Shown here: piece after piece, positions 3,133 through 10,446 of the stretch | How positions within the stretch are numbered: position 1 is the first letter of the stretch | Layout of the letters: each line of letters begins with the position of its first letter | Virus record (IMG/VR): IMGVR_UViG_2713896784_000029 | DNA from: a virus | Lineage: Duplodnaviria; Heunggongvirae; Uroviricota; Caudoviricetes | Direction: 5' to 3' (one strand) | DNA: 38,978 nt | Translations under genes and position numbers: made by a program | The notes under the pieces: model-generated | Seen by the model: only the letters and a program-made list of their open reading frames with translations | Database searches by the model: none | What the model was told of the DNA's origin: nothing

Positions 3133-4065
3133 ATGACTGATATTAACGATGTAATCAAGACCATTGATGAACTTATTGATGGCGGCGTACTGACGCAGTA
3201 TGCCATCGCCAGAGAGGCGGGAATTTCCGACGGCACATTATCGGCTTTCCGCAAGGGAAAATATAAAGGCGATAACGCTGCTGTGGCTGCTTCCCTGCGT
3301 TCCTGGTATGAGAACTGGAATAAACAAAGCGCACTGCCGGAACCGCCGCAGTTTGTGGAAACGCAGACAGTCCAGGAGCTGCGCGCACTGTTTCAGGCGG
3401 TTCGTCTGATGGGCTGTATTAACGTTATTGTGGGCGTACCGGGTGTGGGTAAAACGGCCACTGCCCGTAATTACTGCCAGGAGCAACCAAACACCTGGAT
3501 GATCACCCTGTCACCCGCGCACTCCAGCGTCACGGAGTGTCTGCTGGAGCTGGCCGATGCGCTGGGGATTGATTACACCCGCGCGAACAAAGGGGCATTA
3601 TCCCGCGCCATCCGCCGTCGCCTGATGGGAACGCGTGGACTGGTGATTGTGGATGAGGCGGATCATCTTGGTATTGACGGTCTGGAGCAACTCCGGGCAA
3701 TTCAGGACGCCACGGGGATCGGGATGGTGCTTATTGGTAACCCGCGCGGATTGTTTAAAGGTGGACGCCGCGCCTTTGATGATTTATCGCGCCTGTTCAG
3801 CCGTCTTGCCCGTACAAAACAACTTCGCAAGGCCAAAAAGGCGGATGTGCTGGCCATTGCCAGGGCATGGGGAATCAGTGGTGAGGCCGAGCTGGCCGTC
3901 ATGCAGGCTATCGCTGAAAAGCCGGGAGCGTTACGCGTTCTGACACATACGCTTAACCAGGCGTGGCTCACCGCCAGCGGTGAAGGCGCGGCGCTGACAG
4001 AAAAACATATTAATGCGGCCTTTAAAGAGGTTTATACCAACCCTGAATTACTCTCGCAGGTGTGA
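3133..4065 (+). CDS. B: transposition target-DNA activator B (AAA+ ATPase)
   Basis: 310 aa; Walker A GVPGVGKT, Walker B-like LVIVDEADHL; immediately downstream of A; RBS GAGAGG. Confidence 0.85.
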   Translation: MTDINDVIKTIDELIDGGVLTQYAIAREAGISDGTLSAFRKGKYKGDNAAVAASLRSWYENWNKQSALPEPPQFVETQTVQELRALFQAVRLMGCINVIVGVPGVGKTATARNYCQEQPNTWMITLSPAHSSVTECLLELADALGIDYTRANKGALSRAIRRRLMGTRGLVIVDEADHLGIDGLEQLRAIQDATGIGMVLIGNPRGLFKGGRRAFDDLSRLFSRLARTKQLRKAKKADVLAIARAWGISGEAELAVMQAIAEKPGALRVLTHTLNQAWLTASGEGAALTEKHINAAFKEVYTNPELLSQV

Positions 4066-6790: not shown

Positions 6791-7324
6791 ATGATTGATG
6801 CAAAAGTGCTTGAAGGGGTTAAAAACTGGCTGCGTATTTACGGACGTCTGACCTGCGGTGTTCTGGCTGAAAAAATGAATATGCCGCCATCCTCCATGGT
6901 TTATTTTCTGCGTGATGCGGTTGATGCAGGCGTGCTGACGGAATGTAACGGTTTTTATGATATTCCGCGTCCCCGCCCGGTGCAGCCGGTTCGTCGCAAA
7001 TGCAGCCAGGAATCTGCGGCTGATGATGTTCAGTGGTGCAGCTTCAGAAAATCCCTGCCGTGGATTGAAGGGCATGATATTCCGTCGATGGCGTGGGAAT
7101 TTGCTCAGGGCGTACTGACCTGCGAAACCGTTTATGTGGTGGCTGAAGTTGATGAGCAGGCCATGAAAGAAGGCGTGCCCCAGTTTGTGATGGCGTATAT
7201 CGACATCCGCCTGGGCGTCATTATCTGCGGTTTAAGCGGCTGGAATATCACCTCGCGCGTTCTGCGTTACCTGATTGTTGACCGGACGGCCGCGCCTGCC
7301 GGGATATCTGCGGAGGTGGCGTAA
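6791..7324 (+). CDS. hypothetical early protein
   Basis: 177-aa ORF tightly packed after previous gene; N-terminal 50 aa look like a winged-helix fold. Confidence 0.45.
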   Translation: MIDAKVLEGVKNWLRIYGRLTCGVLAEKMNMPPSSMVYFLRDAVDAGVLTECNGFYDIPRPRPVQPVRRKCSQESAADDVQWCSFRKSLPWIEGHDIPSMAWEFAQGVLTCETVYVVAEVDEQAMKEGVPQFVMAYIDIRLGVIICGLSGWNITSRVLRYLIVDRTAAPAGISAEVA

Positions 7325-7839
7325 TGTTCTTTAAAACATCAAACCCTTCCGCGCTGGCCGCGTGGCAAAAATATCAGCAGGACTGCCAGAAAGTTAAGGA
7401 TGAGGCAAAACGCCTTGAGGCCGTGCTGAATGTTGCGTGCCGATCGGTATTTGTATCCGGTATCAGTGGCTTTTGTTTTAAAGGGCTGCGCTTTATGGAT
7501 GACAAATATCCTTTTCATCGCGACTTATGGCGAAAACCGACTGCGTCGAATGGCTGGAGCTGCACACCGCGCACATCACGTATTCCCAAAGCCCTGCGCG
7601 TTGCCTCTGACGAACTTAACAGTCTGTGGCGTGAATATTCGCTCGTCACGTATGCCAGAACCGATGCCCTGTTGTTCTGGCTGGGCATTGACTTCTCAGC
7701 AATATTGCATGGTCCCGTGAAGTGGTTCTGCGTTGACGATGTGATTTATCTCCAGTGCGGCGTAAAACCCGCAAAACAGAGAATGACCGAAATTCTGCCT
7801 GATGAGTTTTATGCTGCCGAAAAGCGAGTCAGGGGGTGA
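7324..7839 (+). CDS. hypothetical early protein
   Basis: 171-aa ORF; start overlaps upstream stop. Confidence 0.45.
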   Translation: MFFKTSNPSALAAWQKYQQDCQKVKDEAKRLEAVLNVACRSVFVSGISGFCFKGLRFMDDKYPFHRDLWRKPTASNGWSCTPRTSRIPKALRVASDELNSLWREYSLVTYARTDALLFWLGIDFSAILHGPVKWFCVDDVIYLQCGVKPAKQRMTEILPDEFYAAEKRVRG

Positions 7840-7842
7840 TGT

Positions 7843-8394
7843 ATGATGATTTTACAACCCATGGGGCGAAAAGGCCGTGCACCCGCTCATGTTCGTGCAT
7901 GGACACCTGAAGAAGATGCGCTGCTGATTGCGCTTTATCCATCCACCCCGGTTAAGGATATTGCTGTCAGGGTAAAAAGAAGTTACTGGGGTGTATATAA
8001 CCGGATTGTTTTATTGCGCGGTACTTACCCGGAGTTGCTCAAATGCAAACGTCCCAGATTTAAACATGATGAAGATAAATTTATCCGAAAAAATGCCAGA
8101 ACAATGACCGGTAAGCAAATAGGAGAATATCTGGGGCGAGACCGGGACTCTGTCCACAATCGGGCGCGATATATTGGCGTAAGCATGAAAAAATACGGAG
8201 AGTTGCTGCCCTTCACCCGCATACCTGACGATGATGTTCGTCTTATTCGTGAATTACGGGATGCTGAATCACCACGGCGTCTTACCTTTAGGGAAATCGG
8301 CGAGAAATTTGAATTATCCGAGGGCACGGTGAGTTTTATTTATCACCGTCGTCGGACTGCCGAAGATGTTGTATTACGGGAGTTAATGCCATGA
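7843..8394 (+). CDS. hypothetical DNA-binding protein with three HTH-like repeats
   Basis: AGGGGG RBS; three internally similar ~50-aa segments each ending in a basic HTH-like helix (WGVYNRIVLLRG / VHNRARYIGV / VSFIYHRRR). Confidence 0.45.
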   Translation: MMILQPMGRKGRAPAHVRAWTPEEDALLIALYPSTPVKDIAVRVKRSYWGVYNRIVLLRGTYPELLKCKRPRFKHDEDKFIRKNARTMTGKQIGEYLGRDRDSVHNRARYIGVSMKKYGELLPFTRIPDDDVRLIRELRDAESPRRLTFREIGEKFELSEGTVSFIYHRRRTAEDVVLRELMP

Positions 8395-8723
8395 TAACGA
8401 CATTATTTGTTGAATCAGATGAACCCCTTGTGTGTGCCGCCGGAATGCCGGTCTGTGGCGGAACGCTGACCGGTGTTTATTTCGGGGATTTGCGCGGTTA
8501 TCCCTGGCATTCACTGAATGATGCTTTCCCGCCTGATATGGAGGCTGTCGTGCTGATTGTTCAGTATGGTCACAGGCAGGAACTGCGCATCGGCCATATG
8601 GGGTATGAAGGCTTTTTTATTGATGAAGAAACTGGAGCCTGCCTTGAAGATGAGGACGGACAGGTGACGCACTGGTGCCATATTTCAGCTTTACCGGAAT
8701 TACAGGAGACGCCCAATGGATGA
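8391..8723 (+). CDS. hypothetical early protein
   Basis: 110-aa ORF overlapping upstream stop (ATGA). Confidence 0.45.
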   Translation: MITTLFVESDEPLVCAAGMPVCGGTLTGVYFGDLRGYPWHSLNDAFPPDMEAVVLIVQYGHRQELRIGHMGYEGFFIDEETGACLEDEDGQVTHWCHISALPELQETPNG

Positions 8724-8856
8724 TCAAATAGTTGAATGTCCCACCTGTGGAAATGAAGCCCCGGAGTATCTGAAAGAGTGCCCACATTGTGGTGAGGTAA
8801 AATGTAATCACTGCGATATGGGCGACGACACTGCATGTATGAATTGTGAGGATTAA
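8716..8856 (+). CDS. small zinc-ribbon protein with four CxxC motifs (46 aa)
   Basis: Not in the supplied ORF track (under 60 aa). ATG 8716 after AGGAGA RBS; translation MDDQIVECPTCGNEAPEYLKECPHCGEVKCNHCDMGDDTACMNCED has CPTC, CPHC, CNHC, CMNC. Confidence 0.45.
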   Translation: MDDQIVECPTCGNEAPEYLKECPHCGEVKCNHCDMGDDTACMNCED

Positions 8857-8860
8857 TAAT

Positions 8861-9148
8861 ATGGAAAAAGAAATCAAATTTGCGCCTAAAGATATCGACG
8901 AAGAACTGGCTAAAATCGGCATGCTTGAGCGTATGCGGGACATTATCGAATATGCGATAAAAGAAAATCTTGCAGCCAGAGAAGCCCTTTTGATAATGGA
9001 GCGGGAGATTAACCTGATTAAGGATGCTGTATCTCTGGATAATAAAATAGCCCGCGAGGAATACGTTCGCCGCAGGCTCGGTGTTGATGGTTCAGCAATT
9101 CTTACATCTGAACATTATGCAAAAATCTTTAATCTTTTTTCGCGGTAA
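8861..9148 (+). CDS. hypothetical protein (AT-rich)
   Basis: ATG 8861 (MEKEIKFAPKD); helical, charged; 3' end overlaps a convergent minus-strand ORF by 20 bp. Confidence 0.45.
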   Translation: MEKEIKFAPKDIDEELAKIGMLERMRDIIEYAIKENLAAREALLIMEREINLIKDAVSLDNKIAREEYVRRRLGVDGSAILTSEHYAKIFNLFSR

Positions 9149-9368
9149 TGCCCATGCAGGCTCGGATATTGTCGAAATGCCAGTTTGTATTAATATATGA
9201 GCCATCCTGGTGTCCCTCTGCGCTTTGGGGTGCGGCACTTTTTTGAGCAATATTGATAATATGTGTTGCCTCCTCACGGGAAATAACCCCCTTATCGAAC
9301 AGGGTTACCATAAGATTTCCAGCCATTGTGAATGCGGCAACATCAAGGGCATTTTTTATATCTGACAT
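9129..9368 (-). CDS. hypothetical protein on opposite strand (AT-rich)
   Basis: 79-aa minus-strand ORF with RBS AAAAGGAAAAATCT-ATG; only convincing antisense-oriented gene in the early operon; AT-rich relative to flanks. Confidence 0.45.
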   Translation of the reverse strand: MSDIKNALDVAAFTMAGNLMVTLFDKGVISREEATHIINIAQKSAAPQSAEGHQDGSYINTNWHFDNIRACMGITAKKD

Positions 9369-9396
9369 AGATTTTTCCTTTTATGTTAATTGACAT

Positions 9397-9424
9397 GGCG
9401 GTGCGGTAACACCGCCCATTTTTT
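9397..9424 (+). terminator. intrinsic terminator-like hairpin upstream of gemA
   Basis: GGCGGTG-CGGTAA-CACCGCC stem-loop followed by CATTTTTTAT. Confidence 0.45.
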
Positions 9425-9438
9425 ATGGAGCCACGATA

Positions 9439-9951
9439 ATGAATCGCGCTTCCCTGATTACCTTAATACATGTCGCAAAACGCGATCTACAGCTTGACCG
9501 GGAGACCTATATATCCGCGCTGCTGGCAGCCACCGGCAAAACCAGCTGCCGGGATATGTCACCGGATGAGTTATCCCGCGTGCTGGATGTTTTCAAAAAA
9601 CGCGGTTTTAAAGTGCGCCAGAAGCCGGTTAACCGGGCCTTAAAACCGGGTACGGTGACCGCCAAAATTCGTGCCATCTGGAAGGTAATGCACCGGCAGG
9701 GCTTTATCTCTGATGGTGCGGAAACCGCCCTTAACCGCTGGGTGAAATCGCAGACGGCCGCGCAGAACGGCGGCGAAGGTGTGGCAAACTGGCAGTGGCT
9801 GGAGCAACACCCCGCCCTGGCCTCAGATGTGCTGGAGCGTCTCAAGCGATGGCACCGCCGCAAAATGCTGGCCGCGATGGGAATGCCCGAACGCACGCTG
9901 ATGGGGTATGACGCCGTTTGCAGGCAGTATGAAAAATCACTTCCCCGTTAA
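9439..9951 (+). CDS. gemA: GemA-like regulatory protein (Mu gp16 family)
   Basis: 170 aa; N-terminus LITLIHVAKRDLQLDRETYISAL fits the GemA/gp16 family pattern; position before Mor/C; GGAG RBS. Confidence 0.7.
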   Translation: MNRASLITLIHVAKRDLQLDRETYISALLAATGKTSCRDMSPDELSRVLDVFKKRGFKVRQKPVNRALKPGTVTAKIRAIWKVMHRQGFISDGAETALNRWVKSQTAAQNGGEGVANWQWLEQHPALASDVLERLKRWHRRKMLAAMGMPERTLMGYDAVCRQYEKSLPR

Positions 9952-9955
9952 CCCC

Positions 9956-9989
9956 AAATCCCGCCACAACGCGGGATTTTTATTTTAAA
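9956..9989 (+). terminator. intrinsic terminator after gemA
   Basis: 9-bp stem AAATCCCGC / GCGGGATTT with 6-nt loop, followed by TTATTTTAAA. Confidence 0.6.
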
Positions 9990-10020
9990 CTTACCGGGAA
10001 CGCGAGAACCGGAGGCTGAT

Positions 10021-10446
10021 ATGACAGAAACTCAGATGAGCATGTTTGGTGGTGACAGTGAGCAACTGCACGCCCTTATCGACCGCCTTGATGACATCCC
10101 TGATGATGTTCTCAAAAAGAACTGGCCGCGGACCCTGTCTGAACTGGTTGAAGTCACCGGCGCAGAACTTCAGCGTCAGGGGATTGAGCCGGTACTGGCC
10201 GGTAAACTGGCACGCAAGGTGGCTGCGGCTCAGGCAGCCTATATGGGCGGACGGGGTTATTACCTGCCGGTCGGGGAATCTCTCTTTGCCGAGCTGCGAA
10301 ACAATGAGATATTTTCGCGCTGGGACCGGGGCGAGAAAATTGAATCCCTTCGCCGCCATTACCGGATGTCAGAAACCCAGATTTATACCGTCATACGTGA
10401 ACAGCGCCGTCTGCATCTGGCAAGAACGCAACCGCCACTTTTCTGA
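10021..10446 (+). CDS. Mor/C-family transcription activator
   Basis: 141 aa; C-terminal HTH region (SETQIYTVIREQRRLHL) and overall layout like Mu Mor/C; sits between gemA and lysis genes; RBS GGAGG. Confidence 0.7.
   Translation: MTETQMSMFGGDSEQLHALIDRLDDIPDDVLKKNWPRTLSELVEVTGAELQRQGIEPVLAGKLARKVAAAQAAYMGGRGYYLPVGESLFAELRNNEIFSRWDRGEKIESLRRHYRMSETQIYTVIREQRRLHLARTQPPLF

Follow-up and report, generated by a model that had tools for sequence, protein, structure and literature searches.

We found that a 46-codon open reading frame (ORF) with four CxxC pairs, located at positions 8716-8856 on the plus strand, is by its substitution pattern a genuine protein-coding gene under strong purifying selection. 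Judged from its sequence, it is the short form of the already catalogued gp13 of phage Mu (Mup13, formerly E14; PHROG 5584) and not a new gene. The 38,978-nucleotide stretch of viral DNA that was analysed (the window) is a Mu-like prophage of E. coli, which carries transposase A and B, Gam, gp11 (PF25754), gp12, gemA, mor, lysozyme and Mu-type late genes. The explanation that we favour overall, with a rough probability of 45%, is that the ORF is an early-operon cistron of the gp13 family, encoding a two-zinc, acidic protein-binding module that works as a non-essential accessory factor. The original prediction, which had described an unannotated four-CxxC zinc-ribbon ORF, overlooked the homology to Mu gp13/E14.

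Translation of 8716-8856 from its ATG start gave MDDQIVECPTCGNEAPEYLKECPHCGEVKCNHCDMGDDTACMNCED (46 codons), which confirmed the predicted ORF and its four CxxC pairs. The pairs are C8/C11, C22/C25, C30/C33 and C41/C44, and they are separated by 10, 4 and 7 residues, so that they are not strictly regularly spaced as had been proposed. Six-frame translation of the window identified a single 46-aa span with four CxxC, and this number per span was reached in one of 200 dinucleotide-preserving shuffles of the window. The predicted ribosome-binding site was likewise present, with a Shine-Dalgarno AGGAGA read from the sequence at 8704-8709 on the plus strand and a 6-nt spacer to the ATG. A purine-rich, Shine-Dalgarno-like run was found 5-9 nt upstream of the start in every variant form of the gene, that of Mu included. 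No in-frame alternative start was found between the preceding stop and the first Cys of the ORF.

The ORF is tightly packed between its neighbours on the plus strand. Upstream lies a 110-aa gene (phrog_6925; 8391-8723) that is absent from Mu, and its TGA stop overlaps the ATG of the ORF by 8 nt (overlap sequence context ATGGATGA); translational coupling is therefore implied. Downstream, the ORF ends in a TAATAA double stop, and 4 nt further on the next ATG, at 8861, opens a homologue of Mu gp14 (phrog_6075; 8861-9148; 50% identity to Mu gp14). Two more genes of the context are gemA (gp16 family; 9439-9951), which is the commonest neighbour of the module in Mu-like phages, and mor (Mor transcription activator family; 10021-10446), which is a recurrent one. 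No sigma-70-like promoter was found in window positions 7800-10100, and the only terminator-like hairpins in this interval, at 9218-9235 and 9397-9416, sit past the gp14 homologue and ahead of gemA. Because no promoter was found, the hairpins lie only downstream and a Shine-Dalgarno run precedes the start of every variant, the ORF is best read as an internal, translationally coupled cistron of a Mu-type early operon, without a promoter of its own.

The frame is strongly constrained at the protein level. When the 39-codon core of the ORF was compared with that of Mu, 16 synonymous (Sd=16) and 3 non-synonymous (Nd=3) differences were counted, with dS saturated and a dN of 0.03, and the median dN/dS was 0.09 over the 73 pairs with dS above 0.1. 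All eight Cys were kept in frame in 42 of 42 homologous IMG/VR viral loci, and they were also kept in about 165 distant relatives. Thus, conservation of the Cys pattern, the check that the original prediction had named, was borne out for both frame and cysteines.

We identified the ORF as a gp13-family member by a phrog_5584 match with an E-value of 2.8e-27 over residues 7-45. The ORF also matched the C-terminus of PHROG 6418, a group of 231-aa fusion proteins. By blastn, the ORF region showed about 72% DNA identity to Mu, D108 and SfMu, and by tblastn against the same three phages the 39-residue core was 92% identical, as it was to Mu gp13 itself. The alignment of Mu gp13 (60 aa; NP_050617 / GP13_BPMU) with the ORF is as follows: MENNKTSYSWLGKFTTVKQECPTCGNESPEYLKECPHCGGLKCNHCDMGDDTACMNCEGE. 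Both genes occupy the early-operon slot before gp14, gp15, gemA and mor, both proteins have an acidic C-terminus, and the window is syntenic with Mu for gp11, gp12, gp14, gemA and mor. However, the 20-residue N-terminal arm of the Mu protein (MENNKTSYSWLGKFTTVKQ, SYSWLGKF) is replaced by MDDQIV in the ORF. Thus, the profile match, the Cys arrangement and the early-operon position of Mu gp13/PHROG 5584 are all found in the ORF, whereas the N-terminal arm is not; since this arm varies across the family, it does not define it.

The gene order upstream also differs. In Mu, gp13 follows gp12, whereas in the window gp12 (7324-7839; 53% identical to Mu gp12) is followed by a gene for a D5-like HTH regulator (phrog_323; 7843-8394), which is absent from Mu, and then by the 110-aa gene. 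The product of the 7843-8394 gene is named either 'AsnC family' or 'SANT/Myb-like' in RefSeq, depending on the genome. As determined by blastn, the match to Mu DNA picks up again precisely at codon 7 of the ORF (window 8734), where the conserved 39-codon eight-Cys core begins (E7-E45; 8734-8850, plus strand; CxxCG-x10-CPxC-x3-K-CxxC-DMGDD-xx-CxxC). Because the N-terminal 20 residues of Mu are replaced and the mosaic junction falls at the 5' edge of the core, the comparison marks this core of about 40 residues as the conserved, functional unit of the gp13 family.

Two observations concern relatives of the window prophage. A Mu-like phage 97.9% like the window over a 1-kb query (LC727895.1 6093-45429, and LC727881.1) is annotated inside Stx1a- and Stx2c-converting prophages, that is, as a transposable phage nested in a Shiga-toxin phage. 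In E. coli 2012EL-2448 (L004, 2622-3319), an IS1A lies between gp15 and gemA in a region that is otherwise syntenic with the window prophage.

A word-indexed search recovered only 11 close clusters, whereas an exhaustive profile search of 1.84 billion representatives gave 219 matches at E below 1e-3, and a profile search of a 5.8-billion collection gave 204. The big multi-stretch profile matches (e.g. P0012 and P0014) were rejected as generic CxxC-repeat or low-complexity proteins and not homologues. Single-module matches carried the signature CxxCG-x9-23-CPxC-x3-K-CxxC-DMGDD-xx-CxxC followed by an acidic tail. Among the 165 signature-bearing members, the second spacer was always 4 and the third always 7 residues, while the first ranged from 9 to 23. 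In an alignment of 30 sequences, C8, C11, G12, C22, C25, K29, C30, C33, D34, C41 and C44 were invariant, and P23, G36, D37 and D38 were nearly so. Over the 165 members, Asp and Glu make up about 50% of the tail and net charge has a median of -7; the window ORF, with 12 D/E against 2 K/R, has a pI of 4.05 and carries a net charge of about -10.

The module was C-terminal in all 165 members, with a median of 5 residues past the last Cys, and it is found either free-standing or as the C-terminal domain of unrelated proteins. N-terminal regions of at least 60 aa were present in 26 of the 165 members and fall into three or more unrelated families, Phage_ProQ_C_like (PF24203) among them. In proteins from some E. 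coli Mu-like prophages (L017-L020, 2302-3126) and in P0253, P0260 and P0266, an upstream domain of about 175 aa continues in frame into the module, which makes the 231-234-aa proteins of PHROG 6418. This fusion partner is unrelated to Mu gp12, and a search for a Rosetta-stone link between the fused N-terminal domains and the upstream neighbours of free-standing copies found none. No match above threshold was obtained in Pfam, NCBIfam, PADLOC or Rfam, the defence and anti-defence models of PADLOC-DB included. A full-text search of one literature library found no paper on the Mu gp13 protein, the CDMGDD motif or the PHROG ids; the 'gp13' matches that it returned were rejected as T7 gp13 or JBD30 gp13 (which is Gam), and 'Mup13' as a rat urinary protein.

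The eight Cys would bind two Zn2+ as two Zn(Cys)4 sites and so fold the peptide into a compact knot. AlphaFold2 (AF2) with the 11 close sequences gave an unreliable model (pLDDT 56), whereas with 30 diverse sequences pLDDT reached 79 and pTM 0.53. In the latter model, the second knuckle sits at the turn of a hairpin (19-21/28-30), and the third pair opens a short helix (31-34). Our best guess from this model and its fold neighbours is a cross-braced two-zinc, treble-clef fold, in which pairs 1+3 and 2+4 would be the zinc ligands. Foldseek against PDB and BFVD found no significant neighbour (best E 0.1-2); the non-significant ones were FYVE, RING/U-box, GATA and PHD domains, with a TM of at most 0.48 in PDB, and one 52-residue BFVD entry with a TM of 0.62. 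These two-zinc, cross-brace or treble-clef domains, which mediate protein interactions, are the best structural neighbours of the model and share its order of knuckle, hairpin with knuckle, and helix, but their E-values in the PDB search were 0.3-2 and they have no sequence relationship to the ORF. The resemblance may be due simply to small size and zinc-knuckle geometry. A PDB sequence search returned generic zinc ribbons only (the RadA N-terminus and eL40), at E of at least 0.005.

Comparison with known zinc domains showed how much of the zinc-ribbon label in the original prediction holds. The first two knuckles, CxxCG/CPxCG around a short variable hairpin, are like those of the Pfam zinc ribbons Zn_Ribbon_1 (PF13240), DZR (PF12773) and Zn_ribbon_LapB (PF18073), but these models have no counterpart to the second half of the ORF (K-CxxC-DMGDD-xx-CxxC, with fixed spacers of 4 and 7). 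The ORF stayed below the gathering threshold, with 18.2 bits against a cutoff of 25 for PF13240 and 16.0 against 27.3 for PF12773. The label is supported at the motif level only (18 bits against 25), and the whole module has no curated family match. With the gene real and its Cys conserved, the original interpretation holds in part. The DnaJ cysteine-rich domain (PF00684) likewise has four CxxC, which in its case bind two zinc ions in about 60 residues; however, the ORF lacks the CxxCxGxG repeat, with no GxG in any repeat, and Mu gp13 matched PF00684 only weakly (E 0.0031, 18.2 bits, cutoff 32.7), while the window ORF did not match it. Lar-like restriction alleviation proteins (PF14354, phrog_6422), small Cys4 proteins encoded by prophages, have a host protein as their target. 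Membership in this family was rejected, with only the first knuckle aligning (E 0.28 in Pfam and 0.064 in PHROG).

A degenerate DNA pattern for K-C-x-x-C-D-M-G-D-D, scanned across about 185,000 species-representative genomes, was positive in 15, all of them Beta- or Gammaproteobacteria. Isolated phages with the module were members of Muvirus (Mu, D108, SfMu and Yersinia Mu-like phages) and Klebsiella phage Kpn BU9. The module was also found on four non-mobilizable Klebsiella/E. coli plasmids of about 52 kb with Cro/CI and Q genes, which look like phage-plasmids. Together, its host elements in Beta- and Gammaproteobacteria comprise Mu-like, lambdoid and N15-like phages, lytic phages and an ICE-like element. 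The sole recurrent neighbours were GemA and Mor, at 9-10 loci that include Rubrivivax and Piscirickettsiaceae, and no constant neighbour was found outside Mu-like phages. The recurrence of GemA and Mor, taken with these scattered contexts, indicates that the family resides mainly in transposable phages yet behaves as a mobile cassette.

Several of the independent contexts bring the module next to genes of DNA metabolism. In a lambdoid prophage (L060), it lies directly before an Rv2179c-like DEDD exonuclease gene and near an integrase gene, and in Kpn BU9 it lies directly before genes for a DUF2800/PD-(D/E)XK exonuclease, a Gp2.5-like SSB and a DNA polymerase. An RNase_T-type exonuclease gene adjoins it in a phage-plasmid (L087), and in a lytic-phage replication module (L086) the gp13-family gene sits between PurZ-like and dATP/dGTP pyrophosphohydrolase genes. 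The PurZ-like product is an adenylosuccinate-synthetase homologue, further genes on the same contig encode DNA polymerase A, a UvrD-type helicase and HD-domain proteins, and the region (L086, 4851-6707) looks like a diaminopurine (Z-genome) biosynthesis cluster. Gam is encoded upstream of the module in both Mu and the window. In a Thauera ICE-like element, the module is accompanied by RdgC, DUF1173 and an H-NS-like gene, and in one further context (L084) it follows an RlaP-like gene in a long array of small early genes. In three Mu-like prophages of Burkholderiales/Ectothiorhodospiraceae (L068, L072 and L077), the gene is part of the late head operon, flanked by Portal_Mu and Mu F, a setting for expression that differs greatly from the early region of Mu; in L072 (3779-3964) the eight-Cys gene starts 3 nt past the portal stop. 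Because of these late-operon copies, a role in early host takeover is not universal in the family.

Based on these results, the favoured reading proposes that a basic surface on some host or phage protein serves as the docking site for the module, which would thereby block or recruit that protein. A protein-binding module is in keeping with its acidity, with its use as the C-terminal part of unrelated proteins and with its dispersal, as a small coupled cistron, among early, replication and in some cases late operons of phages. Nucleic-acid binding would be unlikely for a protein of net charge about -10 whose CDMGDD loop is both acidic and invariant and whose tail is acidic too. The docking target would most plausibly be a DNA-binding or DNA-end-processing protein. 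The nearby nuclease, SSB, polymerase and Gam genes give a weak hint of a partner in DNA-end or replication metabolism, and nuclease or replication genes adjoin the module in the non-Mu contexts L060, L087, Kpn BU9 and L086 independently of one another. However, DNA-metabolism genes abound in the early regions of phages in any case, so this association may be coincidental. A compact, strongly acidic eight-Cys module that has no Pfam model, solved structure or literature is now defined, and since the model phage Mu carries it, existing genetics would allow a direct test of its function. Should it turn out to be a host-factor inhibitor or docking domain, it would be a new small-protein family for phage-host biology; otherwise, it is another conserved hypothetical protein.

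A less probable explanation, though the best placed of the competing ones, is that the module has no target of its own and serves as a C-terminal cap or subunit, stabilised by zinc, of the product of the adjacent upstream gene, without which it would not work, the two being fused in some phages and split but translationally coupled in others. The extreme C-terminal position of the module in fused forms, the members with N-terminal regions of 60 aa or more, and the 231-aa phrog_6418 fusions in Mu-like prophages are all in line with this, as are the start/stop overlaps with the upstream gene in the window, Mu, L060, L084 and Kpn BU9. However, the upstream genes and N-terminal domains are mutually unrelated and not joined by any Rosetta-stone link found, and a nearly invariant surface (K29, D34, G36, D37 and D38) would not be expected across such different partners.

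Rather doubtful, if more ambitious, is an extension of the favoured protein-binding reading, in which the module would be a portable docking domain, cross-braced by two zincs and hitherto unrecognised, that proteobacterial phages and mobile elements share, and would thus represent a new host-takeover or anti-defence family. The invariant acidic CDMGDD face would then bind one conserved hub of host DNA repair, nuclease activity or defence, whether the module stands by itself or forms the C-terminal domain of varied effectors. Such a domain might presumably account for part of the semi-essential early-region phenotypes of Mu, e.g. amplified replication ('arm').

We consider it unlikely that the ORF encodes a zinc-finger regulator of phage or host gene expression that binds nucleic acid, whether it would control transcription, as P2 Ogr does, or translation, as Mu Com does. 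Zinc ribbons often bind nucleic acids, the first two knuckles weakly matched zinc-ribbon models as well as ribosomal and RNA-polymerase zinc ribbons, and the gene adjoins the regulatory genes gemA and mor. However, acidic residues outnumber basic ones by 12 to 2, the pI is 4.05, the family has a median charge of -7, a tail of about 50% D/E and no conserved basic patch, and no curated regulator family was matched at threshold. Of the two roles put forward in the original prediction, regulator or host-factor inhibitor, this extreme acidity argues against a regulator that binds nucleic acid and would be compatible with a protein-binding inhibitor or adaptor. Still more improbable is a metal-handling or redox mini-protein, that is, a rubredoxin-like Fe(Cys)4 protein or a metallothionein-like zinc buffer. 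Cys makes up 17% of the residues, CxxCG and CPxCG are rubredoxin knuckle motifs too, and there was a weak Pfam match to the LapB 'Rubredoxin metal binding domain' (E 0.0024), but the ORF differs from rubredoxins in its 10-residue spacer and in having no aromatic core, and no redox partner genes were found nearby. The rigid spacing and the conserved K29, D34, G36, D37 and D38 would point instead to a specific fold and surface and not to bulk metal binding.

The weakest explanation, that the ORF arose by chance and owes its conservation to an overlapping antisense gene or to a DNA or RNA element, could draw on two longer antisense ORFs (88 and 108 aa) that overlap it and on an antisense frame -1 that is open in 21 of 21 unique cores, but it is effectively refuted by the substitution pattern and by the plus-frame dN/dS of about 0.09. 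The differences between the window and Mu cores fall 2/1/16 on codon positions 1/2/3, which marks the plus-strand frame as the coding one; the antisense ORFs are excluded because their first codon position would fall on the variable sites. Moreover, protein-level homologues persist where DNA identity is too low for nucleotide conservation, and no Rfam match was found. The two minus-strand ORFs (8570-8836 and 8617-8943) are longer than the real gene and open in relatives, and although non-coding by the substitution pattern, they could mislead gene callers that rely on ORF length.

The description of the ORF as unannotated was true in part. RefSeq/PGAP carried no annotation of it in the three closest E. 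coli prophages inspected, but GenBank holds an identical 46-aa protein as a 'hypothetical protein', 685 contigs of a large collection carry it, and the 60-aa homologue in phage Mu is annotated as gp13. The gene was present in 49 of 5,426 complete E. coli genomes, with the 60-aa form annotated by RefSeq in E. coli W and a 52-aa form in SE11. Our results therefore offer an annotation fix for a real, selected gene that RefSeq systematically misses in the prophage lineage of the window, that is, for the short form found in 14 of the 5,426 genomes.

Two database entries also touch on this family. On the Klebsiella grimontii plasmid NZ_CP117737.1 (L087), a 52-aa gp13-family ORF at 3477-3635, where the PLSDB gene table has no protein-coding gene, bears the PLSDB/RGI label 'chrB, non-erm 23S rRNA methyltransferase (G748)' at 100% identity, and the same chrB label is found on CP026270 and CP056543. 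This label is almost certainly a false resistance-gene call. In 90%-identity clustering, the 46-aa protein was placed in the P0237 cluster under a representative that is the unrelated product of the 110-aa upstream gene, which reflects either an artefact of the clustering or a bridge formed where the two overlapping genes are joined, by read-through or frameshift, somewhere in the collection.
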